Positions 8,761-32,659 of a stretch of DNA of 36,666 nucleotides are shown one piece after another (position 1 is the stretch's first letter; each line of letters starts with the position of its first letter). Location of the stretch: IMG/VR virus record IMGVR_UViG_3300005077_000057, positions 1 through 36,666 of that record. One strand, given 5' to 3'. The stretch is from a virus. The notes beneath the pieces were generated by a model that was not told the DNA's origin, did not search any database, and was given only the letters and a program-made list of their open reading frames with translations. Both the position numbers and the translations under genes were made by a program.

Positions 8761-8770
8761 AAAAAAGTTA

Positions 8771-8995: not shown

Positions 8996-10787
8996 AAATT
9001 GCTTTTATCTCCGGCCCGACTGTGGCGGTAGCGCCGACAGTTACAGCGACTTTGAATTGTATCTGGTCGCCATTTACGGAGGAGTTTTCTATTATTTTTG
9101 TAGCTATCGCACCGTCAGAAGCATAACTCATTGTGCCGATAGTGGTGTATGTATCAGTCAAATTATTGCGGTAATAGAGCGTAATAACATCTCCGCTGGC
9201 CATTTCCTTGCCAAGATTTATCTCAAAGTAGCGGAATGTTTTAGGTTGATATTTGTCAGCTATTGTCCATAAACCTGTCTCAAAATATGAGGTCGTTACC
9301 AAGCGATAGCTGGCGTGGAAAGTTTGAATAGTGTAAAGGTCTGCCGTGTAGGTGCTTTCAAAACAACTGGCATAAAAAAGCTCGTCATCCGGTAAGAATG
9401 CTCCATAAGTCACTGTTTCCACCCCAGATACGCCCTCGTTAAGCGAAGCCAACCGATAAGGCACGGTAATTTTCCCTGTTGAGGGGTCAAACTCGTAAAT
9501 ACCAGCACCAAGCACCGTAGATGACGGGTTAGAGCAACCGATATAAAACTTATCTCGCCACTCCATAAACGAGTTCGGGCCAACCAAGAAAGATGTGGTG
9601 CTTCTCGCCTGTTGCGAGTTGTTTGTTGATTTAGGAAGTTGCCCAACCTTTTGAACAGCATAACCGTTGGTAGCGTAAATAGTCCCGTCAGTTTCACCAC
9701 TCGCAGAGTTTGAAGTTATAAAATACAAAGTCCCGTTATATGCTTTCATTATTTGAACCCAGCTTCCTTTAATTTCCAAGATACTATCAAATGATGGGCT
9801 TACTGTATCCCACAGGTAGATTTTGGCGTTATTCTCACCAGCAATACCAGTTCCTATCGCCAAACGCATATTATATTCCTCTAAAAATGTCGGATTTGAA
9901 CCGCCTTTTGGCAAAGTAAGTGCTTTTTGTGAATAGGTGAAAGTTGCGCCAGTTCCCGGAGCAAATGTTTCGCCTGTATTTTCTTCCAAAGAGTCAACAT
10001 ACCCTTGTCCGGTTGATGTCGCTTGCGAAGTCCCGATATACAATATGTTATTGCTCATCACTTTCATCGGGTTTGTGCCATAACTGGTGGATGTTTCAGC
10101 AAAGTTTTCTGTCCACGCCGCCGTTCCTAAATTAGCGATAGAACCAAAAGCCGACAATTTATTCGTGCCGACTTTTACTATCAAATAATTATTCCAAACT
10201 TCCATATCCACAGCGTCTTCTGAACGGCGAATACAAGTCCAAACATCTTTGTAAGATGATGATTTGAGCCAGACATTCATTCCGCCAGTTCCCTTGTCCA
10301 AAGCATAATAATTTCCACCATAATTAAAGAACTTTTTAACTACTTTTATTGATTTTGCGGTGATAGTGTGCGTGCCTGTGCCAGTATCGGTAATATCAAT
10401 CGGTGTATCCGCCGCCATATTAGCGAGAGATGAAGCCAATTTAAGCGTATTGCCCGAAAAGCTGATAACATAATAAATCGTATTGACCGCCAAAGGTGTG
10501 GGTAGCGTGTCGGTAGTGGTTAGCTCCACCGCCATACCCTCTTCCCAAATTGATGATGGCGTAGTCCCTATATCAAGCGTGTTATTCGCCGTTGAGACCG
10601 TGAAAGTCCTTGCCGTGTAAGCGGTTTCACCCCAGTATGGAAAATCAGCCGTTAATCTCGGCAATGGAAAAACAGCACCCACCGCACTGTCGGTATCAAG
10701 TCCAGTAATTCGGGTGAAGTTTCCAAGATAACTCGGAGACATCCCCTTTTCTATATTTTCCAATAGATTTATTTTTTTATCAGCCAT
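8985..10787 (-). CDS. Tail protein (nozzle / tail tubular B-like or receptor-binding), probably beta-rich.
   Basis: 600 aa, S/T/G/Y-rich with repeated strand-like segments, located between the fibre genes and the internal-protein genes. Assignment is by position and composition only. Confidence 0.4.
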   Translation of the reverse strand: MADKKINLLENIEKGMSPSYLGNFTRITGLDTDSAVGAVFPLPRLTADFPYWGETAYTARTFTVSTANNTLDIGTTPSSIWEEGMAVELTTTDTLPTPLAVNTIYYVISFSGNTLKLASSLANMAADTPIDITDTGTGTHTITAKSIKVVKKFFNYGGNYYALDKGTGGMNVWLKSSSYKDVWTCIRRSEDAVDMEVWNNYLIVKVGTNKLSAFGSIANLGTAAWTENFAETSTSYGTNPMKVMSNNILYIGTSQATSTGQGYVDSLEENTGETFAPGTGATFTYSQKALTLPKGGSNPTFLEEYNMRLAIGTGIAGENNAKIYLWDTVSPSFDSILEIKGSWVQIMKAYNGTLYFITSNSASGETDGTIYATNGYAVQKVGQLPKSTNNSQQARSTTSFLVGPNSFMEWRDKFYIGCSNPSSTVLGAGIYEFDPSTGKITVPYRLASLNEGVSGVETVTYGAFLPDDELFYASCFESTYTADLYTIQTFHASYRLVTTSYFETGLWTIADKYQPKTFRYFEINLGKEMASGDVITLYYRNNLTDTYTTIGTMSYASDGAIATKIIENSSVNGDQIQFKVAVTVGATATVGPEIKAIYVY

Positions 10788-11798: not shown

Positions 11799-12917
11799 TT
11801 AAGCTTTATATTCTACTCTTGCGTTGTCGGGACAAAAATACATTCTGTCTGCGTGTGTAGCCACTCCCGCAATAGCCACTACATCATCTTCGCCACTTGG
11901 AGCTGTTTGAGTTAAAGCTCCACCTGTTGTTGAGGCGTATATTCTGCCACCAACAGTCCACGCCCAATCATCATCACGAACAAATCCCCTTAAAAGAACC
12001 TTTGTCGCTTCATCTGCCACCTTGCTTTCCAAAGCCAAGCCGAGAAGCAAACACGAAGCAATAGCGTCAGCGTCTGACTTCCACCATTTCCCGTCTGATT
12101 TCAAATAAACCAAGTTAGGAAAGGCAAGTGTTTCGCCAGCCACTATATCATCCACAATATCCCCATTACCGGTATTATCGCTTGAAGGAATAGCGTCATA
12201 AATCAAATTATATTCCGCTAAATCAATATCACCCGTTAAAGAGCCAGATAATACGCCCGTGGGACCTGTCGGACCTTGCGCGCCTGTCGGACCAGTAGCG
12301 CCTTGCGCTCCCGTAGGCCCTGTCGCACCAGTTGGACCCGGCACGGTTGAAGCCGCACCAGTCGGACCTGTGTGTCCGGTAGGCCCAGTTGCTCCTTGCG
12401 GACCAGTGGGACCAGTATGTCCTGTTGCGCCGGTTGTCCCAGCACCTGTTGGACCAGTAGGTCCAGTTGGCCCTATTGAGCCAGTAGGCCCAGTATGCCC
12501 TGTCGTTCCTGCTCCTGTTGGACCGGTTGGACCCGTATGGCCCGTCGGTCCTGTTGGACCGGTTGGCCCTGTTGTGCCAGCTCCGGTAGGGCCTGTATGC
12601 CCAGTCGGGCCTGTTGGTCCTTGCGCTCCGGTTGGGCCGGTAGTTCCAGCACCCGTAGGTCCGGTGTGTCCCGTTGGGCCGGTAGCACCTTGCGCACCGG
12701 TAGCACCAGCCGAGCCAGTCGGACCAGCAGAACCGGTCGGGCCAGTCGGACCGGTAGCTCCGGCACTTCCAGCGCTTCCGGTAGGTCCAGTAGCGCCAGT
12801 AGCTCCTTTGAAGTTGGCTTTTGTAGCTTTATAGGTTGTTCCGCCACTTACAACAGCAACATAATCGTCATCCGCCACAGGGGATAGTGTTGTAAGTTCA
12901 CTAATTTTTGCATCCAT
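11799..12917 (-). CDS. Collagen-like triple-helix repeat fibre protein (G-x-T repeats).
   Basis: About 190 aa of uninterrupted GxY triplets dominated by GPT/GAT/GHT, followed by a globular C-terminal domain. Antisense and shifted frames are open only because of the repeat. Confidence 0.85.
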
Positions 12918-12920: not shown

Positions 12921-13784
12921 TTATCTTATAAATAATACATCTTGATTTTTTGCTAAATTGACAAATTGTTGCCATTTTTTGCTATTTTTAGGTCCTGTTA
13001 ATTTAACCATCATCTCCAACGCTTCCTTGAAGTCAGCGTTTATCAGTATTGCTCTTAAACAATATGCTTTCGCCATATCGTATTTTTTCAGATTACAACA
13101 GCATTTCGCTATTTGTAGGTTGGCTTCAGACATTTCAGGTGGCCACCACGCCTTTTTCAAGTAATCTTCATACCAGAACATTGCCGTCTCCCAGTCCTTT
13201 CTATACCAATACTCGCGTGCCAGATAAAACTTTTCTCTTATACAATTCGGGTCTTTAATCACTTCCTTGCCCAGTATTCTTAACGCTCTATCAGGGTCTT
13301 TTTTGTGAGCATCGCTATATCCGTATTTGATAACTATTTCACTTGTTGTTTTGGCGACCATTGTCAGATAATTGTGTATTGCTCCTTTCCAGTAAATCTT
13401 TGGTGTCCGCCTAAATACTCTGGGAAATAAAAAGTGTTCTTTCGCTCCGTTTTTTGGTTTTAATATACAATGTAATAATTGCTCGTCAGAATACTTTGCT
13501 ATTTCGGCTTTCAGCACATCCACGCTCTCCAAAACTTCGTCAGCATCTATTGATAATATCCAATCGCCAGTAGCTTTGCTCAAAGCGTGATTACGAGCTT
13601 CGCACATACTGTCGTTCCACTTGTAGTCGGTATAAATCTTGTCGGTATAGCGTTTTGCTATTTCAATCGTATTGTCTTCGCTTCCTGTATCACAAATAAT
13701 AATCTCATCAAGTCCTTTAATGCTTTCCAAACATTCTTCAAGACAACTCTCTTCATTTTTTACGATTAAAACCGCACTTATCAT
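12921..13784 (-). CDS. Family-2 glycosyltransferase fused to a TPR-like C-terminal domain.
   Basis: ISAVLIVKNEESCLEECLESI ... ICDTGSEDNT ... SIDADEVL (DxD). The C-terminus has repeated helical W/Y-rich TPR-like units. Confidence 0.8.
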   Translation of the reverse strand: MISAVLIVKNEESCLEECLESIKGLDEIIICDTGSEDNTIEIAKRYTDKIYTDYKWNDSMCEARNHALSKATGDWILSIDADEVLESVDVLKAEIAKYSDEQLLHCILKPKNGAKEHFLFPRVFRRTPKIYWKGAIHNYLTMVAKTTSEIVIKYGYSDAHKKDPDRALRILGKEVIKDPNCIREKFYLAREYWYRKDWETAMFWYEDYLKKAWWPPEMSEANLQIAKCCCNLKKYDMAKAYCLRAILINADFKEALEMMVKLTGPKNSKKWQQFVNLAKNQDVLFIR

Positions 13785-13786: not shown

Positions 13787-13960
13787 TTACGATGGTTTAG
13801 TTGCGTTAGACCAAGTTGATGTTGGTTTAGTTGCGTTAGACCAGTCAGAAGCCCGTGATAAAACTATCTTGTCGCCGTTCTCCAATAACAGATAGTAGGC
13901 ATCTTCCTTTAACAGAAAGGAATTGGTCAATGATGGTTTTGTCTCGTTTGTCCAACTCAT
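13787..13960 (-). CDS. Small repeat protein (57 aa) with W-x-N-x-TKP-S/T repeats.
   Basis: Hand-translated MSWTNETKPSLTNSFLLKEDAYYLLLENGDKIVLSRASDWSNATKPTSTWSNATKPS. ATGA-coupled to the upstream gene. A 20-bp exact DNA repeat (ggtttagttgcgttagacca) lies at a 30-bp period. Confidence 0.45.
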   Translation of the reverse strand: MSWTNETKPSLTNSFLLKEDAYYLLLENGDKIVLSRASDWSNATKPTSTWSNATKPS

Positions 13961-14685
13961 ATGTTTTCTTTTAGATAATCTTTAACCGTCATTCTTGGCG
14001 GGAACATCTCTTGAAACTTCTTGGCGTAATATGTTTTGATGTTCTGTTTCATTTTTTCATACTCTTTTTCCAGTTTGGCGTAAGCGTCATTGCCTTGCGG
14101 TTTAGAAAACCAATAACGGATAGACGCTCCAACTGGGATAACTCCGTGAAACTCGGCGATAAATCCGGGTGTAGCGGTGGTATCGGTTGAAACAAAGTCG
14201 TGAGAACCCCTATCAAAATACACTCGTAAAGATGAGGCCTGTGTGTAATCGGATGCCGGATAAATCGTCATAGTGTCGCCAATAAGCGTGTAATATCTCG
14301 GTTGTCCGTCAGTAGTGTAGAACTCGCTAATCGCTCCGGGTATTTTCTCGGTCGGTAGTGGCTCTAACTTATGCCAAATGCTGTCCTCGTTCATAACCTC
14401 TACTCGCCTGACCGTGTATGTTCCTGTTGGCAGAGCATAGGTGCTTTGTGCCGAAGTTATAGTCGCTGTGGCGATAGGCAAATCTGTTTGGTTGCTGTCT
14501 TCATACTGCCAACCACCATAAGCGTCAAAAATCACGCTCCAAATCTCTCTGTTCACATCATTGGCATAAGCGGTGAACTTTTTAAGCAATGTTGAGTTGC
14601 CACTAATTCCCGTATTGCCTAAATTACAGTAATCTTCGCAGAGCTGTATAATTCCATTTAATCCTGAAGTGTCTGAAAAAACCAT
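13957..14685 (-). CDS. Structural protein, possible head-tail adaptor / tail tubular A-like.
   Basis: ATG at 14685 lies 4 nt after the HNH stop. The alternative ATG at 14739 would overlap the HNH gene by 50 nt. Assignment by position between the head and tail blocks only. Confidence 0.4.
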   Translation of the reverse strand: MVFSDTSGLNGIIQLCEDYCNLGNTGISGNSTLLKKFTAYANDVNREIWSVIFDAYGGWQYEDSNQTDLPIATATITSAQSTYALPTGTYTVRRVEVMNEDSIWHKLEPLPTEKIPGAISEFYTTDGQPRYYTLIGDTMTIYPASDYTQASSLRVYFDRGSHDFVSTDTTATPGFIAEFHGVIPVGASIRYWFSKPQGNDAYAKLEKEYEKMKQNIKTYYAKKFQEMFPPRMTVKDYLKENI

Positions 14686-14689
14686 ATAG

Positions 14690-15256
14690 TTATTTTTTAT
14701 GTATTTTAATATGGCAGTTCTTGCACAAAGTAATGCCATTATTTATATCAAATCTTAATTCTTTATATTTAGCCCAGTGTTTTATGTGATGAGCGTTTAA
14801 ATTGTGTCCTTTATTATCTCCGCATAACTGACAAGCATAGTCATCTCTTTCAAAAACTGATTTTCTCCACTCAATCGCTTCTTTTCTGTTTCTCTCAAGT
14901 AAATTTATTTCTGTTAATCCACCCTTCCATTTATAAGCATTTTCTTGACGATAGTGTTTTGGCCAACAATTTTTACAATAAGTAATTTCTTTTCTAAAAT
15001 TATACCTATACTTTAATTGTTTTCCACAATCAGCACATACGCTTTTTCCTCCTCTATAATTTGGGTTTTCTTTTCCTGAAATAGCAGAAGATTGAAAAAT
15101 TCCTCTACATTTTCTAGAACAAAACTTACTCTTCTTATACTGTTCTGGACTAATCCTTTTACTATTAGCAACAGTATTTCTAATAATTTCATTACCACAA
15201 ATTATACAAAATCTTCTTTCCAATTCTATTTTTCTTTTACTTCTACCGTCCCGCAT
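14690..15256 (-). CDS. Free-standing HNH homing endonuclease.
   Basis: C-terminal CQLCG...NLNAHHIKHW...NNGITLCKNCHIKIH (HNH with a zinc-binding CxxC pair). N-terminal CxxC-rich region. Markedly AT-rich relative to its flanks. Confidence 0.85.
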   Translation of the reverse strand: MRDGRSKRKIELERRFCIICGNEIIRNTVANSKRISPEQYKKSKFCSRKCRGIFQSSAISGKENPNYRGGKSVCADCGKQLKYRYNFRKEITYCKNCWPKHYRQENAYKWKGGLTEINLLERNRKEAIEWRKSVFERDDYACQLCGDNKGHNLNAHHIKHWAKYKELRFDINNGITLCKNCHIKIHKK

Positions 15257-15266: not shown

Positions 15267-15947
15267 TTAGTGTTTAGCTTGATATTTATTTATATCCTTT
15301 GTTGTTTTGCTGTTGAATAGTTTAGTGTTGTTCGCTACGCAATGACCGCCTATCTTGCCTTCCGTATATTTCAATACTGGTCTTACTACTTCGGGTCGGC
15401 CAAGTTTTATGTATCCCTCGTTATAGGTTTGGTTGGCATCTGTATAAACCAAGTCAAAATCTACTTTGTGTTTCTTACACCAATTAAATATCTCCTTGTT
15501 GAGCAGTATCATTGCGCCGTATTGCGTGGTGGACCATAGTTTAAGTGCTTCCGTATCGTTAGAGCTTTTGGTTGTTTTGGTTTTAATTCCAAATGTCTCA
15601 AAGTATTTCGCCGCTTCCCTTGCCTGTTCGCCACCAAAGTATTTTACAAATGTTCTTATCCCTTCTTCCAAGTGAGGGTGAACGCCCCTAACTGGGGAGT
15701 GAACCACGCCAAGTTTCTTACAAGTCCCAACTGGAACTGTGGAATGGACTATCGTAATTTTTGGCGTAAATCTTTTAATGTATCCCTTTACCGTGCTATT
15801 AAAATAATTTGAATACGGAATGCAGATATGAATAATATCGTAATGTTTTTCTTCATATTTGCCTTCCAAGCGGTCAATGTAATCACCGCCAACTACATTA
15901 TGAATGCCCTTACCAATTTCACCGTAGCCAATAATTAAATTAGTCAT
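15267..15947 (-). CDS. NAD(P)-binding nucleotide-sugar dehydrogenase-like protein (short form).
   Basis: N-terminal Rossmann motif LIIGYGEIGKG. TEALKLWSTTQYGAMILLNKEIFNWCKKHKVD and GKIGGHCVANNTK resemble the central and catalytic-Cys segments of UDP-glucose/GDP-mannose dehydrogenases. Confidence 0.5.
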   Translation of the reverse strand: MTNLIIGYGEIGKGIHNVVGGDYIDRLEGKYEEKHYDIIHICIPYSNYFNSTVKGYIKRFTPKITIVHSTVPVGTCKKLGVVHSPVRGVHPHLEEGIRTFVKYFGGEQAREAAKYFETFGIKTKTTKSSNDTEALKLWSTTQYGAMILLNKEIFNWCKKHKVDFDLVYTDANQTYNEGYIKLGRPEVVRPVLKYTEGKIGGHCVANNTKLFNSKTTKDINKYQAKH

Positions 15948-16974
15948 AGAACGCTTTTATTTTAGTAATAATAAAATCTTGTTCTTCTTCGGTTAATTTA
16001 ATTCCGCAAGGCAAGCATACTGTCGTTTTATAAATCGCATCACTACTCCAAGTTCCATATTGCTTATACATTTTTTGCGTATGAATTGGCACAAAGCCCG
16101 GTCTTGTCTCTATATCAAATCTCGCTAAATAATCCATCAAAGTTTTGGCGTTAGGCGTGTTATACGGATACATCCAAAACGAACCTGCTCGCTTGATATA
16201 AGATGAATTGCCATAATTTGATAATTCTTTCGTATATTTATCCGCTATTCTCTTTTTAATAAGGTTATGCTCATCAAGTTTTTTAAGTTGTGAAGCTCCA
16301 AGTGCGCACTGCATAGCCCCCATACTCATACCGTAGCCGACTTTATTGTGCATATACTGCCCAGTTCGGTATTGGTCTTTTAATAATTTAATCTCTTTGG
16401 CAATGTCTTCATAATTCGTCACCACCATACCGCCCTCGCCTGTGGTTATAACCTTGTTGGCAAAGAACGAGAAACAACCAATATCGCCCTGTGAGCCAGC
16501 CATAAACCCTTCAACTTCTGCTCCAATAGCTTCCGCCGCATCTTCTATCACCGGAACACCATAGGATTTCAGTGTCGCCATATCGCAAGGTATCCCGTAT
16601 GTATGAACCGCTATAATTGCCTTTGTTTTTGGCGTTATTTTAATCTTATCGGCCATTATATTCAGCGTGTATGGTTCACTATCAACCAGAATTGGCGTTG
16701 CGCCTGTGTGCGATACCGCATTAGCTACCGCAATAAATGAAAAATCTGGCACTATAACCTCGTCTCCCGGCCCTATTCCTAACGCTTTTAGTGCGATAAA
16801 CAGCGCAGAAGTGCCTGAATTGACCGCTATGGCGAACTTCACGCCCATTTTCTCGGCAAATGCTCTCTCAAAATCATCACAAACGGCTGTTCTGCCCGAT
16901 AATTCGTTATTTTCAAGGCATTTAACCACCGCTTCAATGTCTTCTTTGTCTATATTTGGCTCGCAAATGTTCAT
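15940..16974 (-). CDS. DegT/DnrJ/EryC1/StrS-family PLP-dependent sugar aminotransferase.
   Basis: AVNSGTSALFIALKALGIGPGDEVIVP ... DAAEAIGA ... FSFFANKVITTGEGGMVVT (Schiff-base Lys). Length 344 aa. Confidence 0.9.
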   Translation of the reverse strand: MNICEPNIDKEDIEAVVKCLENNELSGRTAVCDDFERAFAEKMGVKFAIAVNSGTSALFIALKALGIGPGDEVIVPDFSFIAVANAVSHTGATPILVDSEPYTLNIMADKIKITPKTKAIIAVHTYGIPCDMATLKSYGVPVIEDAAEAIGAEVEGFMAGSQGDIGCFSFFANKVITTGEGGMVVTNYEDIAKEIKLLKDQYRTGQYMHNKVGYGMSMGAMQCALGASQLKKLDEHNLIKKRIADKYTKELSNYGNSSYIKRAGSFWMYPYNTPNAKTLMDYLARFDIETRPGFVPIHTQKMYKQYGTWSSDAIYKTTVCLPCGIKLTEEEQDFIITKIKAFYD

Positions 16975-17495
16975 AAATCGTAGTGTGCTATTAAATAACT
17001 TCTTCCTATAAATCGTTTAGAATGTATTGTCTTGACCGTGCCGTTAGGCAGTAAATCAAGCAAATCCTGCTCGCTAAACTCCCATAAATGCTCCGGGTCA
17101 TCAAACTCCAAGTGCGGTGTAGATAATATAATTCGCTTCCTTGCCAGTCGCACCATCTCTTTTATTAAAAGTTCGGGTTTTTCTAAATGCTCAATCACTT
17201 CCCCAGCCACCACCGTATCAAATGATTTATCTTTGAAAGGTGTCCGTAGAATATCAGCGCAAACAAACTTCGTTTCAGGATATAGTTGTTCGCATTTTGA
17301 TATTGTGCGTGGTGAATAATCCACTCCGACACCGCCTATCACATCAGCAAATGGCGATAAACCACATCCCAAGTCAAGCACCGTGCCGATTACTCTTTTA
17401 GCGTATTCTCTCTGCCGTAGTCCGAAGTCCATAGCGGTCTGGTGTTCATCCCAGTAATTCGGCGTGTTTATATTGGCAGTAGTTAATCGCTTCAT
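16971..17495 (-). CDS. Class I SAM-dependent methyltransferase.
   Basis: Motif I VLDLGCGLSPF, then FDTVVAGEVIEHLEKP. ATGA overlaps on both sides. Confidence 0.8.
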   Translation of the reverse strand: MKRLTTANINTPNYWDEHQTAMDFGLRQREYAKRVIGTVLDLGCGLSPFADVIGGVGVDYSPRTISKCEQLYPETKFVCADILRTPFKDKSFDTVVAGEVIEHLEKPELLIKEMVRLARKRIILSTPHLEFDDPEHLWEFSEQDLLDLLPNGTVKTIHSKRFIGRSYLIAHYDL

Positions 17496-18577
17496 ATACC
17501 CACAACTATTGGTTTATCTCGCCAATTTATTACCTTTGTTTCATAACCGACCTCTTCAAGCATCTGTTTCATATCCTCTACCGCAATGCCGTAAAATCTA
17601 TCGTGATAAGCCATTTTGCGTAAATTGCCCTGCATCACTACCGACTTACAACTCTTTCTTATTTGTCTCAAAATCTCTTTTTTGTTTTTTAGGTGATAGA
17701 TAACATTTAGCAATAAACAGGTATCGTATTTGTCAATTATTTTATAAGTATTCAAGTCAGCCACTTCAAATGTTATCGGTAAATCTCTTTTGTTTAGTTT
17801 TTCAAATATCAGTTTGTTAGTCCAAGCTCCCTCTACGAACTTGTAATCTACGCCGTGAGCGATACTGCCCTGTAATGCCGACTTAATTGACATCAGCCCT
17901 TCATTACATCCCAAGTCCAACACTTTTTTACCGATTAAATCTTTTATCACCGGCCACCTATCGTCAGCGTTTTCTCTATAAATAAAAGGCACATTTTGCT
18001 CCAAGTTTTTGAACTCGCCGTAATCTATCAAGTAGTAGTTCGGGCCAAGTCCTATCTCACGGGCTTTTGTTTTTCTTTTCAGCCACTCCCAAGATACTCC
18101 CTCCCAATGAAACGCAAACTCTTTAACTTCAATTTCAGGTATCTGTAAGTAGTGAGCAACTAAGCTCCTGTGTGAGCCATCAAACTTCTCGCCTGTCCGC
18201 TCTACACATACTCCGCCATAGTGTCCCAAGTTCTTGTTAAATCCTGTTCGCATTGAGGTCAGTATCTCTTTTAATGAACGGATTTTAACATCAACATAAT
18301 TATCACCTTTTATTTTCCCCCAAAAGCTGTAATATCTCGTATCTTGGAACTTTATATCGGGGTTTTTGTCTATCTGCTCTATTGTTTCTAAAACTGGGTG
18401 ATAATCTATCTCATAAAACTTTTCTGTGTTTTCTTCCCACACTATCGGCTTACTGCGGTCTTCCTCTGGCTCTAACTGGACAAAATCTGTCGGTTTAATT
18501 GACTTCCAAACGAACTTATCAGCACTCATTAAGTCGTGCCTTTGTTGCCAAGTTGTCGTGTGAAAATCAAATGTCAT
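17492..18577 (-). CDS. Two-domain protein: ParB/Srx-like N-domain plus a class I SAM methyltransferase.
   Basis: N-half has VCVERTGEKFDGSHRSLVAHYLQIPEIEV (DGxHR-type motif). C-half has KVLDLGCNEGLMS ... YDTCLLLNVIYHLKN. Confidence 0.6.
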   Translation of the reverse strand: MTFDFHTTTWQQRHDLMSADKFVWKSIKPTDFVQLEPEEDRSKPIVWEENTEKFYEIDYHPVLETIEQIDKNPDIKFQDTRYYSFWGKIKGDNYVDVKIRSLKEILTSMRTGFNKNLGHYGGVCVERTGEKFDGSHRSLVAHYLQIPEIEVKEFAFHWEGVSWEWLKRKTKAREIGLGPNYYLIDYGEFKNLEQNVPFIYRENADDRWPVIKDLIGKKVLDLGCNEGLMSIKSALQGSIAHGVDYKFVEGAWTNKLIFEKLNKRDLPITFEVADLNTYKIIDKYDTCLLLNVIYHLKNKKEILRQIRKSCKSVVMQGNLRKMAYHDRFYGIAVEDMKQMLEEVGYETKVINWRDKPIVVGI

Positions 18578-19509
18578 AATGATAGATATTTTGGTTTTAA
18601 TGTTTTCCAGCTATTTTGTTTAGCCCACTCTTTGCCCATTAAAGAGTATTTTGATATGTCTTTGCCATACCACTCGTCTATTTTCTGGGCTATTTTTTTA
18701 GGGTTAATTATGGCGCAATCAAACTCTGCTCCAATACGCTTTTTTACATATCCATCGTGGTCTATCAATAATTCTTTTGGCAACCAAGTATTTGTCGGAA
18801 ATCTGTCGCTGGCCATTACCGGAATACCACTCGCATACGCTTCTTGCATCGGCAAAAATGAACCACCAAACTTTTCAGGAAATATCAGTATGTCGCCGTC
18901 TTTCCATAAATCCTCATAGGGCATATCACCTCTAAATATCTCTACTCTTGTGTCATCGCTTTTCAAATCAAGGTTTTGGGAACGCACTTTTAATTTAATC
19001 GGGCTTTTAACATACTTCATCGCTTCCAATAGTTCCTTTGTGCCGTTTCTACCGCCCAGTCCGCCGTGTCCGGCATTGTGTATAAACACTTCGGCTCGCT
19101 TTCTTAACTTCCATTTCATATCCACCGGAACATTTATGTATTGGCAAGGTATCTGGCATCCTAATCTTTTGTAATGCTCAACCTCAATTTCGCTTCCACC
19201 CACCAATACATCGGGATAATAAGGAAAAGGATACTGCGTGCATTCATACATCGCTAATAATATTGTTTTAATCCCCTTTAATTTTGCTTCTGGTATTACC
19301 TTCCAATTAAAAGGAGTTTCAAAGAACATTAACTTGTCGCATTCGTATAAATCCTCTATCCGATTAACCCTCTCCTTGCCATACCAATTCTCTGTCTTAT
19401 AAGAGGAGTGCGGATATACGAATATTTTGTCTATTATGCCGTGGTCAATAAAGGATTTTGCTTGTATCCCCAGTCCGCTTTGTGTGGCATAGCAAATCGT
19501 GCCTATCAT
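18574..19509 (-). CDS. GT-B fold glycosyltransferase (GT1/GT4-like).
   Basis: DILIFPEKFGGSFLPMQEAYASGIPVMASD matches the E-x7-E / GT4 C-terminal donor-binding signature. Confidence 0.7.
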   Translation of the reverse strand: MIGTICYATQSGLGIQAKSFIDHGIIDKIFVYPHSSYKTENWYGKERVNRIEDLYECDKLMFFETPFNWKVIPEAKLKGIKTILLAMYECTQYPFPYYPDVLVGGSEIEVEHYKRLGCQIPCQYINVPVDMKWKLRKRAEVFIHNAGHGGLGGRNGTKELLEAMKYVKSPIKLKVRSQNLDLKSDDTRVEIFRGDMPYEDLWKDGDILIFPEKFGGSFLPMQEAYASGIPVMASDRFPTNTWLPKELLIDHDGYVKKRIGAEFDCAIINPKKIAQKIDEWYGKDISKYSLMGKEWAKQNSWKTLKPKYLSL

Positions 19510-20447
19510 ATGTTCGGGTTATTGTGAGCCGTTTTATATTCATTTATTCTTTCAACTAACTCTTTACATCTTATTGTATAGGTATGATTGGCCCTGCAAT
19601 GCTCAAATCCAGCCATTCTTATATCATCTCGTTCTTTATCGTGGAATATGAAGTAGTCAATTTTCTCTTTTAACCCTTCAAAATCGCCAATTTTGTATGG
19701 AATGTAGTGCTTATACTTTTCAAAGTCGTTCATTCCCTCAATTTCAGGGAAAATCAGGAAACCACCTCGCCCTAATGTTTCATAAATACGATTGCTCCAA
19801 TACTTTGGTCTTACCACGCTATCGCCCACCACCACTTTTGCCGAAGCATACAGGTCATTCAGTTCTTGGTTGCGTATTTCCTTTCCTTTGCCGAAGTGCT
19901 TAAATCTTGGACCATAGGTATTTTTCAAAAAGGTCAGTAATGTTCCCCGATAACTCCAATTAAATGCGTTGCTGTGAACATCTGTGCCGACAAATATCAC
20001 ATCATAGCGGTATTCTTGCCGGACATTCCCTAACACCGCTTCCGGCTCATAAATGCCTTGTCTTAATACCGAATGATTTACCCCTATTCTGGCAAAACTC
20101 TCTTGATTACCACCGTCAGTAGTAAATACCAAGTCAGCGTCAAATAATGGATGGTCAAAGACAAGGTGTTCTCTGTTCGTTCCCCAGCATAAGTCCCAGA
20201 ACCACCCTACTCGCAAAGTCGGACATTGTTTAAGAGCAAATTTACATCTTGTCGTGTCGCCTTGAAACCAACTTTTACTCAATAAGATAAAATCGTATTT
20301 TTCTTTTAATAGCGCTTCAAGCTGTGTCGGATTAACCTCATTAACTTGTTTTCTAATAACCGTATGCCCCATACTTTCAAGCGTATTTGAAACATAAACT
20401 TCGGTATCAAATGGCTTCTCAAACACGCCAAAGTAAAGGATAGTCAT
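19506..20447 (-). CDS. CgeB-like glycosyltransferase (Glyco_trans_1_2 type).
   Basis: Start taken at ATG 20447 (MTILYFGVFEKPF), 2 nt after the upstream stop. C-terminal SNRIYETLGRGGFLIFPE...YIPYKIGDFEGLKEKIDYFIFHDKERDDIRMAGFEHCRANHTYTIR resembles CgeB-family proteins. Confidence 0.55.
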   Translation of the reverse strand: MTILYFGVFEKPFDTEVYVSNTLESMGHTVIRKQVNEVNPTQLEALLKEKYDFILLSKSWFQGDTTRCKFALKQCPTLRVGWFWDLCWGTNREHLVFDHPLFDADLVFTTDGGNQESFARIGVNHSVLRQGIYEPEAVLGNVRQEYRYDVIFVGTDVHSNAFNWSYRGTLLTFLKNTYGPRFKHFGKGKEIRNQELNDLYASAKVVVGDSVVRPKYWSNRIYETLGRGGFLIFPEIEGMNDFEKYKHYIPYKIGDFEGLKEKIDYFIFHDKERDDIRMAGFEHCRANHTYTIRCKELVERINEYKTAHNNPNI

Positions 20448-20449
20448 AG

Positions 20450-20701
20450 TTAGTGTTTTTTCATTTTGTGCATCCGCAGTGATTTCTCGTTCTTGGCGAC
20501 AAACCCGCAAATCGGACACTCTATTATATCTTTGGCTTCTATTGGCGTTTCTGCCGGTTCGCTACCAACCTCGCCCAAATCTTTCCACAAAGGGTTATTC
20601 TTTAATGTTTCGGCAACCATCTCTTCGGGTATATCCACTATCCCCATATCTACGGCGCAACCGCCGTCTAACTTAAATCGTCTTAAATAATGAAATGTCA
20701 T
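20450..20701 (-). CDS. Small protein with a C-terminal C2H2-type zinc finger.
   Basis: CPICGFVAKNEKSLRMHKMKKH fits C-x2-C-x12-H-x4-H exactly. ATGA-coupled to the upstream glycosyltransferase. Confidence 0.5.
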   Translation of the reverse strand: MTFHYLRRFKLDGGCAVDMGIVDIPEEMVAETLKNNPLWKDLGEVGSEPAETPIEAKDIIECPICGFVAKNEKSLRMHKMKKH

Positions 20702-21414
20702 AATCTTGGTTTAGTTTCACTTGACTCTCTCAATTTTTTTAGCAACCCCTCCCTATTAAAAACTATTGGCTCTAAATCTTTTGTTAAATCATCATAATAC
20801 ACTTTGCTTTTGAACCTTGCGCCAGCATCATACTTGGCGTATCTCTCCGCTTTCCTTAACCGGTCATCTTTTAGCATTAAGCCGTAATGTTCAAGGTAAA
20901 ATGGTGCGTGCCAACCCCTATGGTAATAAATTGGCGGTGCTAATCCGCAATGCAGGCGTTTATTCTGATATTTGGTGTTATCGGGCAAATACTTGAAGTA
21001 TCTTACATTCCAAAACCTTTGTATGCCTGCTCCGTGATAAAAATGTTCAGGGTCGTTATAAAGGTTCACCACCAGAAAATAATATGCTATCTCTTTGCCA
21101 CCTGCCAGCCGTTCCGCTTCGGCACGGGTGAACTCTGGGGCAAATATCTCATCCATATCAAGGGCTACTATCCAGTCGGGTTTTAATCCGCCTGCCTTAC
21201 GCAGTAAATCGCCCTTAATCTCTGGTTGGTGTATTCCCCATTCTCTATTGTCTTCGTATTGCCAAAATCCGTATTTTTTAATCAGCTTTTTGGTTTTAGT
21301 ATCAGCGTTATTGGTGGCGATAATCACATCATCACACAAGCGTTTGAACTCTTTAAGCGTTTGCTCTATGTATTTTTCATTCGGGCCGGCCACACCCATC
21401 CCCACTATTTTCAT
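20698..21414 (-). CDS. Glycosyltransferase, GT-A/GT2-like.
   Basis: DDVIIATNNADTKT ... DWIVALDMDEIF (DxD). About 240 aa single-domain architecture. Confidence 0.5.
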   Translation of the reverse strand: MKIVGMGVAGPNEKYIEQTLKEFKRLCDDVIIATNNADTKTKKLIKKYGFWQYEDNREWGIHQPEIKGDLLRKAGGLKPDWIVALDMDEIFAPEFTRAEAERLAGGKEIAYYFLVVNLYNDPEHFYHGAGIQRFWNVRYFKYLPDNTKYQNKRLHCGLAPPIYYHRGWHAPFYLEHYGLMLKDDRLRKAERYAKYDAGARFKSKVYYDDLTKDLEPIVFNREGLLKKLRESSETKPRL

Positions 21415-22394: not shown

Positions 22395-23324
22395 TTATGA
22401 AGCTATGTAAGCGTTTGATGCGTTAATCAACACAGCGCCGGGTTCACGCAAAACGGCTACGCCATACATAATGTCAACGACAGTAAGTAAAGCGATGTTT
22501 TCCAGCCAGTTCTGTGATTGAACACGAACTCGGTTAGAACCCATAGTGCGTAAAGCCATACCGAATGCGCTTTTGTGTAAAAGCATATTGCGGTAAGTTT
22601 GCAAACCGGAAACGATATTGGTGGATGTATAAATGGGGATACCGTATAACATACCTTTGTAGTTTCCTTTTGCGGTGCTGGAATTGAAATTACCAGTCAT
22701 TACTGGACCTGCTTGGTTAGCGTTGCCAAGTGTAGCGGAAGTATAGAACTTCGCAATGGCGAAAATCTGATTCCAATACACATAAGGGTGGAAAAAGAAC
22801 GCACACTCATTCAGGTCATAATTCAAGCTATCAAGTTTCTCAATAGATTGACGAACTTCGGCATCAGAAATGTAGGTAGCTGTATCACCAACGGTGTTGG
22901 TAGTTATAGAACTCCACAAGGCAGCAATAGAACCTTCCAAAGCTGTGGCGAGAACGCCAGCGGCTTCTTTGGCATATTTGCTGTTGATGTCGTATTTCTG
23001 GGCTACTAATTGAAGGTCTAAATCTCCAATTAAGAAAGCCACATACTTGTGGGTGTTGATGGTCAAATAAACATCAACTTGCGCGGGGGCTTGGGTAGTA
23101 ACCTCAACTGCCTGCGTGGTCTGCGTTGAAGCAGAGAATGTGTTGGTGAACAACTCCGGAACATGGAAAATATCTCCGCCTTGAGTAGCATAAGCGCTCA
23201 AATCGGTGATAAAGTCCGCAAGGACAGTTTTGTCAAAGAATGCTTCGTTGACGATTGGAGTCCAAACTTCCGGAATTGATGCTGCCAACTCTGTTGAATC
23301 AAACGGGTCACTGTCAAGTGCCAT
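22395..23324 (-). CDS. Major capsid protein.
   Basis: 309 aa, directly after an acidic coiled-coil scaffold-like gene and the portal. The N-terminal pattern ...IPEVWTPIVNEAFFDKTVLADFITDLS...GGDIFHVP is typical of phage major capsid proteins. Confidence 0.75.
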   Translation of the reverse strand: MALDSDPFDSTELAASIPEVWTPIVNEAFFDKTVLADFITDLSAYATQGGDIFHVPELFTNTFSASTQTTQAVEVTTQAPAQVDVYLTINTHKYVAFLIGDLDLQLVAQKYDINSKYAKEAAGVLATALEGSIAALWSSITTNTVGDTATYISDAEVRQSIEKLDSLNYDLNECAFFFHPYVYWNQIFAIAKFYTSATLGNANQAGPVMTGNFNSSTAKGNYKGMLYGIPIYTSTNIVSGLQTYRNMLLHKSAFGMALRTMGSNRVRVQSQNWLENIALLTVVDIMYGVAVLREPGAVLINASNAYIAS

Positions 23325-24167: not shown

Positions 24168-25948
24168 ACTTCTTGCATTAAAGCGTCTTGTTTAGGCGCT
24201 GGGGCCATTTGCCCGCCACCCTGTGGCATACCAGTTCCTTGTAGCATTGGGTTTTCTTGTCCTTGTTTAACACCGGCCAGAGTATCGTAATTCTCTCCGG
24301 TCAAAGCAAGTATCTTGCCTAACACCTTTTCAGCAGCTTGCGGGTTGGTCTGGGATAGCGTGTTATACAGGTTGGTTAATGTTTCTAATCTCTTTTCAAG
24401 GTTCACGCTCTCGCCAGTAATCACTAATTGCGTGGATACTTTCAAATTATCCCAAAACTTTTCAGGTAAATTAACCGCTTGGAACTTTCGGTTTTTAATC
24501 TTTTCTTCTACGGCCATTTTAATCGCTTCCGCATCCGGCAGTTTGCCTTTCAATAACTCGTCTTTATACATCTGCCAAACATACACTTTTTCCACTTCTT
24601 CCATTAACGCCTCTACACCCTCTTCTCCCATTGGTATCATCATCGTCTCGGCTTTGTTGTTTTCTTTTTTGAATATCGGGAATAGTTGCTCATATACCAC
24701 ACTCTCAAAGAATAAGCCCAAGTTCTCTCGTTTCAAGGCAAAGTGAGCGTTCACGGCGTTGCTCATCACCACACCTAATCGGAACGGAGTGCCGGAAGGC
24801 ATAGCTTCACCAGTCGCCACTTCAAAGGTAAATGATTTCTGGTTGCTGTTCTCGTCAATCTCATTGGTAGCGGCTTGAAACTCGGCCAAGCTCTGTGTAG
24901 CGGTATTAACCTGTGTAATGTTGCCGTTAGGCATTATCTTCAATACTTGCCCGTCTTTTACATCTCTGACCAAGTTCTTGGCTATCTCGGTGTCGGTGCT
25001 TTGGAATATCTTTTTTCCAGCCCAGAGCAAACCTCGTCTTCGCAAGTTAGTAATCATATTGCGGAAGATTTGGTTTTCAAACTGATTTTCTATCTCACCC
25101 ACACCAAGCCATCGGCCATCCACTCTTGCCCAATGAACTTCCTCGTATGGTCGTTCATCTATCTCTTCCAAGAATAATATCGTACCACCCTCAAACTCGT
25201 CTTTATCGTTCTTTAACGGAGCAAGGATAGCCATTACATCAATGCTTTTCTTGTCATCACCGTCTTCAACCTTTTGGTCTTTTCGTCTTTTATACCAATC
25301 AAGCGGAACTCTGCCGTATCTCTCATAAATAGTAATCTTTTCATCCCAGTCAATTTTCAAATCTTCCAAGTCCCAGTTTTTCATTTTCTCCAAGTCAGCA
25401 TAAGTCCAGTCCTTGTGTTCCTCAATTACATATCGGGCTTCTTGTAGGTTTTTAGCGTCTTGTTGGCAACGGAGTGTCATCAAGGGAACACGCTGTAATT
25501 CCTTGCCCACTTTTTTCATTACTGATGAGCCGTATTTCGGATAGTCAGCCACTACTTCGTTTATCAGTTTGCCAAAATAGTTCTTTTTAGCCCACTGCTT
25601 GAACTTGCGATTAAGAAAGAATGAACCCCACTCGCTGTTCGGCTCATCCGGCACAAACAGGAAATCCTTTACATCAATATCTACCTGTTTTGAAGCTACA
25701 TCTGCTTTGAACTTTGATATGTTTAGGAATACTTTGCGTTGTCCTTCGCTGTCTTTGTTGCCACTCTCAAACTGCGAATTGTAGTAAAGCTCAATCAGGT
25801 TAAGTGTTTCCCATTGAGAAAACTCAAAACCGCTTCCAGTTGTTCGTGGATTGTCTGATTGGACACCAGCTATCTTTACTTTCTCTTGAAAGAAGTCCTT
25901 TAATTCCTTTTGTAGCTGTCCGAATATGTTAAATCCTGTTTTATTCAT
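24164..25948 (-). CDS. Portal protein.
   Basis: 594 aa, immediately downstream of and overlapping TerL by 8 nt. Size and position are typical of portals. No independent motif check was possible. Confidence 0.7.
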   Translation of the reverse strand: MNKTGFNIFGQLQKELKDFFQEKVKIAGVQSDNPRTTGSGFEFSQWETLNLIELYYNSQFESGNKDSEGQRKVFLNISKFKADVASKQVDIDVKDFLFVPDEPNSEWGSFFLNRKFKQWAKKNYFGKLINEVVADYPKYGSSVMKKVGKELQRVPLMTLRCQQDAKNLQEARYVIEEHKDWTYADLEKMKNWDLEDLKIDWDEKITIYERYGRVPLDWYKRRKDQKVEDGDDKKSIDVMAILAPLKNDKDEFEGGTILFLEEIDERPYEEVHWARVDGRWLGVGEIENQFENQIFRNMITNLRRRGLLWAGKKIFQSTDTEIAKNLVRDVKDGQVLKIMPNGNITQVNTATQSLAEFQAATNEIDENSNQKSFTFEVATGEAMPSGTPFRLGVVMSNAVNAHFALKRENLGLFFESVVYEQLFPIFKKENNKAETMMIPMGEEGVEALMEEVEKVYVWQMYKDELLKGKLPDAEAIKMAVEEKIKNRKFQAVNLPEKFWDNLKVSTQLVITGESVNLEKRLETLTNLYNTLSQTNPQAAEKVLGKILALTGENYDTLAGVKQGQENPMLQGTGMPQGGGQMAPAPKQDALMQEV

Positions 25949-27227
25949 AAGAAGTTATTTCTATATTATTTCCCTTGTTATCTACTAACATTTTTTGAAC
26001 TCCGCTTAATTTTGCGGTTGATTTTGATGGTATATTCCATACAGACAGGGCCAGAGAGAACACGCAGTCATCGTGAAGCCCATCAGGCACTTCTATTCTC
26101 GTTCTGCCTCTATCGGTTATGTTGTATCTAAAACTTTGTAATTCGTTTAATAAAATATCATCGTTGGGTATTTTTATTCTGCTTTGTTCCAGTAGTATTT
26201 GTAAATTAACCAATAAATCTCGTCTGCTATTTTCGGTAAATCTATAAGCATTTACTCGTATGCCGCGCTGGTATAAGTCATCGTATATCGGCTCTCCAAC
26301 GCCAGTGCTGTCCATATTAACAAGGCCATTAAAGTATCTGCGGTATGAGGCCTCTATCTTTGTTTTCTGTAAATTGTAATCTATTTGGTTAAAGCGGTCT
26401 TGTTTCAATACTTTAAATTGTGTCATATCAAACGGCGTAATCACCGTGTAGTCCATTGTCTTGGCCAAGTCCACGCCTAATTGATACAGGTGGCCGTGTT
26501 CCTCTTTATCGTTAGCTTCGTAAGTGTTCTCCATTACTCGCTTAAAGAATGCACCAGCTCCCTCTATGAACTTACAAAAGTATTCTTGCTCTATAATATC
26601 CTGTGGGTTTGTTTTGCGTTCCTCTTCAAGGTCTTCATCGGATAATACTTTGGTCTCTTTAAGCGTCAGTATCTCCCAAAACCATTTGGTATTCTCTTTT
26701 GCTTGCTGTAATAGCTTCCAAGCGTGATTTTGTCCTCGTGGCGTGAAATTGAATACTGCCCATCCGCCATTAACCGCTAAAATCGGAGCTAAATACTTCC
26801 ACGCTTCAGGGTCAGTTATTGAATACTCGCTAAACACCACACCAACAGGATTTGTTCCGACACCGGACTTCTTGAACTCATCAGCGCCGATAAGCTGTAT
26901 AATTGAACCATTAACCAGTTCCACTTTTAGTTCGGTAGCGTTGGTGTTTTTCACCAGTTCCTTCGGTATATGGTCAAGCATTCTAAACCCGTCATTATCT
27001 ATATTGTCCCAAATCACTTTCTTTCCTTGAGAATAAGTTGGGAGAAAATAGTAATAAGTTCCGATTCTCTCAAATGCTTTCTTAACCGTGTAGTTGAAAC
27101 ATACTTTATCCTTTCCGCTTCGTCTGTTCCACACCAAGATAGCTCTTTTACAGCCGGAGTCCATAGCTCTTAAAAATGGTAGTTGATACGCTCTGGGCTT
27201 GAAATTGTAAGGCACTTCTATGTTCAT
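25941..27227 (-). CDS. terL: Terminase large subunit.
   Basis: Walker A-like VWNRRSGKDKV. C-terminal nuclease-type acidic motifs (GVDLAKTMDYTVI, DGLHDDCVFSLALSVW). 428 aa. Confidence 0.85.
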   Translation of the reverse strand: MNIEVPYNFKPRAYQLPFLRAMDSGCKRAILVWNRRSGKDKVCFNYTVKKAFERIGTYYYFLPTYSQGKKVIWDNIDNDGFRMLDHIPKELVKNTNATELKVELVNGSIIQLIGADEFKKSGVGTNPVGVVFSEYSITDPEAWKYLAPILAVNGGWAVFNFTPRGQNHAWKLLQQAKENTKWFWEILTLKETKVLSDEDLEEERKTNPQDIIEQEYFCKFIEGAGAFFKRVMENTYEANDKEEHGHLYQLGVDLAKTMDYTVITPFDMTQFKVLKQDRFNQIDYNLQKTKIEASYRRYFNGLVNMDSTGVGEPIYDDLYQRGIRVNAYRFTENSRRDLLVNLQILLEQSRIKIPNDDILLNELQSFRYNITDRGRTRIEVPDGLHDDCVFSLALSVWNIPSKSTAKLSGVQKMLVDNKGNNIEITSYE

Positions 27228-29496: not shown

Positions 29497-29502
29497 GTAT
29501 AT

Positions 29503-32655: not shown

Positions 32656-32659
32656 ATTA

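Follow-up and report, generated by a model that had tools for sequence, protein, structure and literature searches.

The stretch analysed here, called the window, is the whole of the IMG/VR virus record IMGVR_UViG_3300005077_000057 (36,666 nt), and its subject is an island of eight co-oriented genes, mostly for predicted glycan enzymes (15267-21414, minus strand), located between the genes for the major capsid protein and the head-to-tail adaptor. The minus strand carries every gene of the window. The first 99 nt are repeated exactly at the other end (1-99 = 36568-36666), leaving 36,567 unique bases, and since the ends repeat exactly the window is a complete 36.6-kb genome of a podovirus-like phage, either circularly assembled or with a true terminal repeat. 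The island occupies 6148 nt, or 16.8% of the 36,567-nt genome, which rises to 19.2% when a further glycosyltransferase gene near the tail fibre, named here GT2-TPR, is included.

All eight ORFs (open reading frames) proposed by an initial annotation, made from the sequence alone, were found on the minus strand where it had placed them. The six stop/start overlaps that it listed are real: five are of the ATGA type (16971-74, 17492-95, 18574-77, 19506-09 and 20698-701) and one is of 8 nt (15940-47). At the neighbouring junctions, from the genes next to the capsid as far as the fibre, the gaps are 2-10 nt. The upstream boundary of the block is the major capsid protein (22395-23324; phrog_267, 1.3e-16), and the downstream boundary of the main island is an SU10-type head-to-tail adaptor (13957-14739; PF24175, 1.6e-7), which agrees with the proposed placement inside the structural genes. 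Since a scan for consensus promoters and terminators gave no signal above that of shuffled sequence, co-transcription with the structural genes is suggested by gene packing alone. No island protein has a hydrophobic segment (maximum KD19 1.53), and no flippase, polymerase, ligase or membrane-anchored transferase was found in the window. The genome has no lysogeny module and, as had been reported for the integrase, none among ORFs of at least 190 aa. The genes of the island, for soluble glycan enzymes, are tightly coupled and lie within the head-neck-fibre block.

The first island gene (20698-21414) encodes a GT-A (GT2-like) glycosyltransferase of 238 aa with DMDE at residues 86-89. Its earlier description as a GT2-like DxD transferase is sustained by this motif, by PF00535 matches in a few homologues and by the family profile, for which GmaR is the only meaningful solved relative (6e-5), but the window protein itself stays below the Pfam cut-off (PF13704, E 6e-4, 20.7 bits). 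No other island protein is as conserved within the family, and tblastn with it gave no match in GenBank phages. The next gene (20450-20701) encodes an 83-aa C2H2 zinc-finger protein with the C-terminal finger CPICGFVAKNEKSLRMHKMKKH. The finger named in the initial annotation is weak by Pfam, with zf-C2H2 matches below the cut-off (E 6e-4 to 5e-3), but the ORF is conserved, with orthologues at the equal position in three related phage contigs (L008, L012 and L117).

The third gene (19506-20447) encodes a CgeB-like glycosyltransferase (Glyco_trans_1_2), recognised as such from the beginning. It matches PF13524 over residues 194-322 (1.1e-16, 61.5 bits, gathering score 25) and the glycosyltransferase family phrog_28745 (3.4e-31). 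Its start is most likely the ATG at 20447, located 2 nt past the stop of the zinc-finger ORF, and not the GTG at 20519 chosen by the ORF finder. Relatives of this protein in Streptomyces phages adjoin a methyltransferase, and its family profile gave noise only against the PDB. The fourth gene (18574-19509) encodes a probable GT-B glycosyltransferase (GT1/GT4-type, 311 aa) with the motif FPEKFGGSFLPMQEAYASGIPVM. In the window protein the proposed GT4-like character is weakly marked (Glyco_trans_1_4, E 0.0098, 16.6 bits, gathering score 27; phrog_2170, 8.7e-6), but four of the five orthologues match Glyco_trans_1_4 (best 7.6e-6) and two of the five match Glycos_transf_1. Its family profile has no solved relative by sequence in the PDB, and hhalign detected no relationship between the GT-B and CgeB-like families.

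The remaining four genes encode putative tailoring enzymes. MT361 (17492-18577) is a two-domain protein, in which an orphan N-terminal part of about 205 aa precedes a class I methyltransferase domain of the S-adenosylmethionine (SAM)-dependent type. Motif I, LDLGCN, is at residue 220, and the SAM fold is confined to residues ~210-311; the Pfam methyltransferase matches (6e-6 to 4e-4) are near or below their cut-offs, except for Methyltransf_11. The N-terminal domain has no Pfam match at E up to 1, a word-index search with it was empty, and its fusion partner Nal1_C is uninformative. The MT361 family is rare, with ~16 full-length representatives among 1.84 billion proteins; one orthologue is found in L012 (35% identity). 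MT174 (16971-17495) is a small class I SAM methyltransferase of 174 aa (PF08241, 1.5e-16; LDLGCG at residue 40), whose best NCBIfam match, the mycofactocin oligosaccharide methyltransferase MftM, is weak (3e-9). The two class I methyltransferases of the initial annotation are both present, in MT361 within the C-terminal residues only.

The seventh gene (15940-16974) encodes a DegT/DnrJ/EryC1 sugar aminotransferase of 344 aa, dependent on pyridoxal phosphate (PLP), which covers PF01041 in full length (residues 7-339; 1.8e-97, 327.3 bits, cut-off 19.8). The PLP lysine reported earlier is K174, within SFFANKVITTGEGG, and the segment CFSFFANKVITTGEGGM that holds it fits SFxxxK(x)ITTGEGG, which we take to be the PLP-lysine motif of the DegT family. 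The best solved relative is the perosamine synthetase 3BN1 of Caulobacter (6.4e-72). By sequence this protein is unambiguously a sugar aminotransferase, and it reaches no specific equivalog: in NCBIfam it scores 266.7 bits with LegC (cut-off 420) and 232.9 bits with PseC (cut-off 423.5). These two top matches had suggested a nonulosonic-acid pathway, which was rejected as neither a NeuB-like synthase nor a CMP-transferase was found. A peptide-pattern search of IMG/VR confirmed no relatives of the window DegT protein.

The last island gene (15267-15947) encodes a 226-aa oxidoreductase that resembles a truncated UDP-sugar 6-dehydrogenase, with GYGEIG, K136 and C203, the latter in GGHC. A model was built with AlphaFold2 from an alignment of 48 sequences (pLDDT 95.4), and in Foldseek its top matches were UDP-glucose and UDP-N-acetylmannosamine (ManNAc) 6-dehydrogenases (E ~1e-9). 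The TM-scores were 0.70-0.78 by the query and 0.39-0.46 by the targets, which are 377-456 aa long. The protein comprises only the NAD-binding and central domains of these enzymes. The invariant C203 aligns to the catalytic-cysteine motif GVGGHC of the UDP-ManNAc dehydrogenase 4R16. The Rossmann/GGHC dehydrogenase-like character read from the translation is borne out for the NAD-binding and central domains, but the protein is truncated, without the C-terminal nucleotide-sugar-binding domain. The match to TIGR03026 (9e-5, 21.4 bits) is far below the cut-off of 189.8, and phmmer against the PDB gave spurious RRM matches only. More than 1100 homologues were collected, all of 208-250 aa except for one fusion to a cytidylyltransferase domain; neither the window protein nor these homologues have a Pfam match, and tblastn found no match in 50,697 GenBank phage records. 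A cellular homologue (54% identity) occurs at 10001-10747 of L011, a Patescibacteria metagenome-assembled genome (MAG; GCA_040384225.1), where it adjoins a chitin-synthase-like GT2 gene and two polysaccharide deacetylase genes. Binning placed several phage contigs of this group with MAGs from that project or with Patescibacteria (L035), which gives a weak indication of the host.

By sequence, the assignments of DegT, the CgeB-like protein and the two methyltransferases are solid, and those of the GT-A and GT-B enzymes are weaker. Every assignable enzyme of the island falls in a sugar or glycan family.

Outside the main island, GT2-TPR (12921-13784) encodes a protein of 287 aa with a GT-A domain (PF00535, 1.4e-19, 71.1 bits, cut-off 23.3; DADE at residues 80-83) followed by TPR (TPR_14, 24.5 bits, cut-off 23.5), in line with the fourth glycosyltransferase that had been noticed beside the fibre genes. 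Its nearest solved relatives are GmaR (2e-27), SunS (3e-12) and ThuS (9e-12). Judged from sequence comparison, the solved enzymes closest to either GT-A protein glycosylate proteins or peptides. Directly downstream, after a gap of 3 nt, is the gene of a collagen-like tail fibre of 372 aa (11799-12917; tail-fibre PHROGs, 1e-35). This fibre contains 58 G-X-Y triplets, of which 42 have Thr in the Y position and 28 have Pro in the X position, and its C-terminal domain is homologous to the fibres that adjoin GT2-TPR in L015 and L019.

The association of GT2-TPR with collagen-like proteins was examined in both directions. In the forward test, 21 IMG/VR viral loci were picked through GT2-TPR alone (34-70% identity). 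A collagen-like ORF of the Thr-rich kind lies within 6 kb in 16 of the 21, on the same strand in all but one, and about ten abut directly; the control was 13 loci retrieved for other reasons, where a single collagen-like ORF was found, which is not Thr-rich. The GT2-TPR loci otherwise share almost nothing with the window, and their capsids are Mu gpT-like, HK97-like with an S78 protease, or others. The reverse test began with 120 viral stretches (1.02 Mb), picked solely for a (GPT)4-coding stretch, of which 18 hold a GT2-TPR homologue. Seventeen of these homologues are on the same strand as a Thr-rich collagen-like ORF, at 6-4800 nt from it, and the eighteenth is not evaluable. In GenBank phages (2.3 Gb), 12 records match GT2-TPR, weakly and mostly in part. 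The enrichment of GT2-TPR near (GPT)4 is large but roughly quantified; two different collections are compared, and the loci lack independence. In bacterial genomes, Thr-rich collagen-like ORFs neighbour 8 of 80 more distant GT2-TPR homologues, mostly in Firmicutes.

Gene neighbourhoods in other phages also link GT2-TPR to homologues of the tailoring enzymes. Homologues of MT174 are located directly after GT2-TPR, or are fused to it, in other phages (L016, L019, L025 and L029). In L019, a phage with a Mu gpT-like capsid, the fusion of GT2-TPR with an MT174-related SAM methyltransferase (5995-7440, 481 aa) is followed directly by a 670-aa collagen fibre (7440-9452), the one that shares its C-terminal domain with the window fibre. 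L022 has the order collagen, GT2-TPR, PIG-L-methyltransferase fusion, DUF6625 and sugar C-methyltransferase. L013 joins parts that are separated in the window, since a single island there holds homologues of both GT2-TPR (46%) and the dehydrogenase-like protein (58%).

Among the closest known parallels is a pair of genes from Clostridioides difficile. SgtA consists of a GT-A domain and TPR, its gene is immediately upstream of the GPT-rich bclA3, and the enzyme moves beta-O-linked N-acetylglucosamine (GlcNAc) from UDP-GlcNAc onto Thr of the BclA3 GPT repeats, where other sugars can cap the N-acetylhexosamine (HexNAc) (PMC7157674). GT2-TPR and the fibre have the same domain order and the same arrangement directly upstream of a G-P-T collagen-like gene. 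The difference is that BclA3 forms a filament of the spore surface, whereas here the pair is viral and the acceptor would be the tail fibre. GT2-TPR is also shorter than SgtA (287 vs 358 aa); the two were compared by description, with GmaR standing in as the solved relative. By this analogy, we infer that GT2-TPR would transfer HexNAc to Thr/Ser of the fibre.

Relatives of the window were recovered by capsid-based and protein-based searches. In nine contigs (L004, L005, L007, L008, L010, L012, L115, L116 and L117) the island starts at the equal place after the capsid-proximal small genes, and the adaptor gene ends it wherever the contig extends that far (L005, L008, L012, L116 and L117), so that the comparison of synteny suggested by the initial annotation places the island at an equivalent position. 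Islands of this kind are not limited to host O-antigen or teichoic-acid loci, as the same position is occupied in many phage contigs. The idea that a multi-step glycan pathway would be unusual in a 36.6-kb phage does not hold within this family, since homologues of the island GT-A protein form 610 protein clusters, all on contigs of at most 38.6 kb. Identity across the relatives is 58-73% for GT-A, compared with 58-86% for the capsid, 50-54% for GT-B, 36-42% for the CgeB-like protein and 35-37% for DegT.

The constant core consists of the GT-A, zinc-finger, CgeB-like, small methyltransferase and GT-B genes. The cassette differs: in the window it is composed of MT361, MT174, DegT and the dehydrogenase-like gene; in L005, L007, L008 and L012, of a short-chain dehydrogenase/reductase (SDR) and DegT, with the dehydrogenase-like gene where the contig reaches it (L005, L008 and L012); in L116, of a methyltransferase, a cytidylyltransferase-like gene and DegT; and in L117, of SDR, a sugar C-methyltransferase (Methyltransf_13/14), a cupin and DegT. 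An acetyltransferase of the GNAT family sits earlier in the island of L005, L007 and L008, and some of L005, L007, L008 and L012 have additional GT4-like and GT-D-like genes. On this comparison, carrying the island is the rule among members of a large family of uncultivated phages, in which the transferase core is conserved and the amino-sugar cassette before the adaptor varies.

The pathway had been described as self-contained, which the window does not bear out, because SDR, GNAT and a nucleotidyltransferase are all missing from it; no trace of SDR or GNAT was detected. As the window lacks SDR, its DegT must use a keto-sugar that comes from the host or is made by the dehydrogenase-like enzyme. 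The SDR of the relatives carries SSAEIYG and YGASK, and its PDB relatives are mixed (4-epimerases, 4,6-dehydratases and UXS enzymes). The Glu in SSAEIYG, which we take to be a mark of 4,6-dehydratases and decarboxylases and not of 4-epimerases, suggests that the SDR is not an epimerase but a dehydratase or decarboxylase. In the relatives, the dehydrogenase-like protein, SDR and DegT together recall the Ugd-ArnA-ArnB route to 4-amino-4-deoxyarabinose (Ara4N), which these data neither confirm nor exclude.

Taking these features together, we propose, with somewhat more confidence than doubt, that the island is a module of late genes whose products build a glycan in the cytoplasm of the host, for attachment to the phage's own virion proteins. 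Host nucleotide sugars would be tailored by DegT, the truncated dehydrogenase-like oxidoreductase and the two SAM methyltransferases to give a methylated amino sugar, the 4-keto intermediate for DegT being probably supplied by the host. The three soluble transferases (GT-A, CgeB-like and GT-B) would assemble the glycan. Late in infection, GT2-TPR would prime Thr of the (G-P/A-T)n fibre, probably with HexNAc, as SgtA does for BclA3. The main island may lengthen this fibre glycan or may decorate a different virion protein, the capsid and a small repeat protein being among the candidates. The product on the virion would be a surface glycan that differs between relatives; a variable glycan on the particle is expected because the tailoring cassette differs between related phages. 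A wider and more tentative suggestion, which we hold with less confidence, is that tailed phages of many lineages O-glycosylate Thr-rich collagen-like fibres through a dedicated GT-A/TPR enzyme, and that in the present family a swappable cassette gives the virion a glycan 'serotype', comparable to the O-antigen diversity of bacteria. A corollary of this wider suggestion is that the dehydrogenase homologue without a nucleotide-binding domain, and the PIG-L deacetylases that accompany it in other phages, may tailor protein-attached sugars and not nucleotide sugars.

Several observations weigh against virion glycosylation. The case for it is comparative throughout, and the loci behind the linkage statistics are not independent and were drawn from more than one collection. 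The capsid protein lacks the Ser/Thr-rich C-terminal extension that the mycobacteriophage acceptors have; an acceptor role of the capsid by analogy with Che8 was rejected for want of such a tail. L012 keeps the main island without GT2-TPR, and its collagen-like protein is charged and not Thr-rich. Because L012 has the island without GT2-TPR or a Thr-rich collagen, the main island cannot depend on a Thr-rich fibre, and from this distribution it probably has its own acceptor. The window has no enzyme that makes the keto-sugar substrate of DegT. Soluble transferases can also work on lipid-linked intermediates at the inner face of the membrane. Finally, sugar genes beside the fibre genes of aquatic phages are usually read as modifiers of the host O-chain (PMC7029224).

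A speculative candidate for a glycan acceptor, or for a small virion protein, is the 57-aa protein encoded at 13787-13960. It contains three W(S/T)N(A/E)TKP(S/T) repeats, each with an N-x-T sequon and flanking Ser/Thr. L005, L008 and L012 share both the protein and its repeats (2-5 copies), which have no other occurrence in these genomes. L116 and L117 lack the protein, and it is present in relatives without GT2-TPR.

The main rival explanation is that the island modifies the host envelope, in which case its enzymes would remodel a surface glycan of the infected cell (O-antigen, teichoic acid, capsule or S-layer glycan). We consider it less likely than virion glycosylation, but a serious alternative. 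Superinfection would be blocked or progeny kept off lysed cells, and the variation of the cassette would track host serotypes. Glycosyltransferase and deoxy-sugar genes that lie near fibre genes in the hypervariable regions of aquatic phages are usually interpreted in this way (PMC7029224; PMC10202952). The explanation is favoured by DegT, whose best relative is the Caulobacter perosamine synthetase, perosamine-type amino sugars being typical of O-antigen; by the cellular homologue of the dehydrogenase-like protein, which lies beside a chitin-synthase-like GT2 and polysaccharide deacetylases in the Patescibacteria MAG; and by a weak GtrB-like PHROG match of the GT2 domain (1e-4). However, all island proteins are predicted to be soluble, and the membrane-anchored transferase, flippase, polymerase and ligase expected for such a function were not found in the window. 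Because there is no integrase or lysogeny module, a long-term benefit from seroconversion is not available. Classical lysogenic seroconversion had already been discounted in the initial annotation, and membrane-bound Gtr-type components were indeed not detected. The genes are coupled to late structural genes and not to early ones, and the solved relatives of both GT-A enzymes act on proteins or peptides. Host-envelope modification also leaves unexplained the linkage of GT2-TPR to the collagen fibre and the fusion of glycosyltransferase and methyltransferase beside the fibre.

Two solved relatives of GT2-TPR, SunS (3e-12) and ThuS (9e-12), are peptide S/O-glycosyltransferases, and together with the match of GT2-TPR to the SunS family model in NCBIfam (TIGR04195, 4.8e-16) and the position of the 57-aa ORF directly upstream of GT2-TPR they could indicate that GT2-TPR and the island make a glycocin-like peptide or a glycosylated metabolite. 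We regard this as very improbable. The SunS family match scores 58.6 bits where the cut-off is 350, a far better match (2e-27) is obtained with GmaR, which transfers O-GlcNAc to protein, and no peptide transporter or protease was found in the window. The small ORF next to GT2-TPR lacks cysteines, which makes a glycocin-like product unlikely; this ORF also lacks leader-like features and is conserved where GT2-TPR is absent.

Hypermodification of DNA, in which the transferases would glycosylate modified phage bases as a protection from restriction, is the least credible explanation, despite the C5-cytosine methyltransferase (30349-31611) and the N6/N4 methyltransferase fragment (27251-27832) of the window and the phage glycosyltransferases known to put diverse glycans on 5-hydroxymethylcytosine DNA (as cited in PMC12619734). 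As the initial annotation held, no enzyme for it was recognised: neither a thymidylate-synthase-like hydroxymethylase, nor a TET/JBP dioxygenase, a DNA kinase or a DNA glycosyltransferase of a known family is present among the ORFs scanned with Pfam or PHROGs, and the island is located in the structural block and not in the replication or early block. The unassigned ORFs outside the structural block are all shorter than 150 aa (the largest has 146 aa), which falls short of the size usual for hydroxymethylases and TET/JBP enzymes (from about 250 aa upwards).

Modification of the phage's own virion remains the preferred interpretation, and known systems offer parallels for its parts. GmaR, the O-GlcNAc transferase of Listeria flagellin, and SunS/ThuS are, as is proposed for GT2-TPR, soluble GT-A enzymes with a helical-repeat domain that glycosylate polypeptides directly from nucleotide sugars. 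They differ in their acceptors, which are flagellin or a small bacteriocin precursor, and the anti-repressor role of GmaR has no counterpart in the window. Gtr-type O-antigen conversion resembles the window in that phage GT2 enzymes change a surface glycan, but it employs a GtrA flippase, a membrane GtrB and a GtrC beside the integrase of temperate phages, none of which is found in the window. The BclA protein of Bacillus anthracis carries anthrose, a 2-O-methylated 4-amino-4,6-dideoxyhexose (PMC9614988), which belongs to the class of sugar that the island aminotransferase and methyltransferases could make.

To our knowledge, glycosylation of bacteriophage virions has been documented so far for mycobacteriophages only. 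In Che8, Rita and their relatives, phage glycosyltransferases act in the cytoplasm and glycosylate the phage's own capsid or tail tube, which results in a glycan shield (as cited in PMC12619734 and PMC11256854). The acceptors there are the C-terminal parts of the capsid and tail-tube subunits, an extension that the window capsid lacks. The transferases of Maravista (F1 cluster) are near the 3' end of the genome (PMC11256854), unlike those of the window, which are inside the head-neck block. The texts consulted (PMC12619734, PMC11256854) describe no tailoring cassette with DegT or a dehydrogenase. The GT-A and dehydrogenase-like proteins of the window have no sequence relationship to GenBank phages.

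Giant viruses glycosylate autonomously, in the fibrils of Mimivirus and the capsid of chloroviruses, and the similarity to the window, as proposed here, is in a virus-made amino-sugar glycan and a collagen-like acceptor. In Mimivirus, a viral dehydratase, aminotransferase and acetyltransferase yield UDP-viosamine derivatives, the fibrils carry 2-O-methyl-N-acetylviosamine, and L230 glycosylates a collagen-like viral protein on hydroxylysine (PMC9614988). The differences are the eukaryotic hosts, the genomes of 0.3-1.2 Mb, hydroxylysine in place of threonine as the acceptor residue, and enzymes that are non-orthologous to those of the window.

Virion glycosylation in mycobacteriophages and giant viruses, and the SgtA/BclA3 logic in spores, are already known. 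What appears new is the extension of the SgtA/BclA3 logic to the fibres of phages from several lineages; in a widespread family of uncultivated podoviruses, a glycan locus of the head-neck region in which the transferase core stays constant and the amino-sugar cassette can be swapped; and a large undescribed family of truncated UDP-sugar-dehydrogenase homologues. A literature search of incomplete coverage returned no description of any of the three. Sugar genes of environmental phages are routinely annotated as modifiers of the host O-antigen or as DNA-protection enzymes. If our proposal is true, uncultivated phages commonly have glycosylated particles, collagen-like fibres are a major class of acceptor, and phages own hypervariable glycan loci, which would bear on host range, adsorption, particle stability and the recognition of phages by immune systems and predators. 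Thousands of "auxiliary metabolic" sugar genes would then need re-annotation. The pair of GT2-TPR and fibre is small, soluble and amenable to a direct test in Escherichia coli. The truncated dehydrogenases, with more than 1100 members and no Pfam model, are an uncharacterised enzyme family worth defining.

A megablast of 12 kb against GenBank phages (50,697 records) found no near DNA relative. In the direction of transcription, the late block begins with the large terminase (25941-27227), followed by a 594-aa protein at the portal position, a 192-aa protein at the scaffold position directly before the capsid, the capsid, three small ORFs, the island, an HNH endonuclease and the adaptor. After the adaptor come the 57-aa ORF, GT2-TPR, the collagen-like fibre, a protein with a ConA-like lectin domain, and the tail/ejection proteins. 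Among the last region, a 913-aa protein (4000-6741) has an ADP-ribosyltransferase domain of the polyvalent-protein type (ART-PolyVal), below cut-off, and a 669-aa protein (6751-8760) carries a CHAP peptidoglycan hydrolase domain at its C-terminus; the two proteins probably reside inside the virion or are ejected from it. The HNH endonuclease gene (14690-15256) extends 50 nt past the annotated start of the adaptor gene. It is partial in L008 and absent from L005 and L012, and looks like the insertion of a free-standing homing endonuclease. The C5-cytosine DNA methyltransferase at 30349-31611 and the C-terminal part of the N6/N4 DNA methyltransferase at 27251-27832, already mentioned, are accompanied by an 83-aa sigma-70 region-4 protein (32660-32911). 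No tape-measure protein, integrase, DNA polymerase or primase was recognised in the window genome.

Two further observations concern other phages. The capsid gene is split by an insert of ~0.7 kb in L007 (6299-6959), L008 (4401-5124) and L010 (7362-8086), with exons that are mutually out of frame. The L007 insert encodes a LAGLIDADG homing endonuclease (5e-9), which suggests a group I intron; an Rfam search of the L008 insert found no intron. In the unrelated Manatee Spring podovirus L002 (MW202713.1), genes for a TibC-like glycosyltransferase, a methyltransferase and a DegT-like protein (2165-6581) are directly upstream of the large terminase gene. The TibC-like enzyme is of the autotransporter heptosyltransferase type, and there too a sugar module abuts the structural genes.

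In the early region of the window, a 32-nt direct repeat (TATATTATACCACA...TTTGTCAA, 75% identical) occurs at 29500-29531 and 32476-32507. One copy extends across the start of a NinG/HNH-like ORF (29515-29874) and the other is inside the 5' end of the ORF at 32491-32679; the repeat may be a regulatory site.

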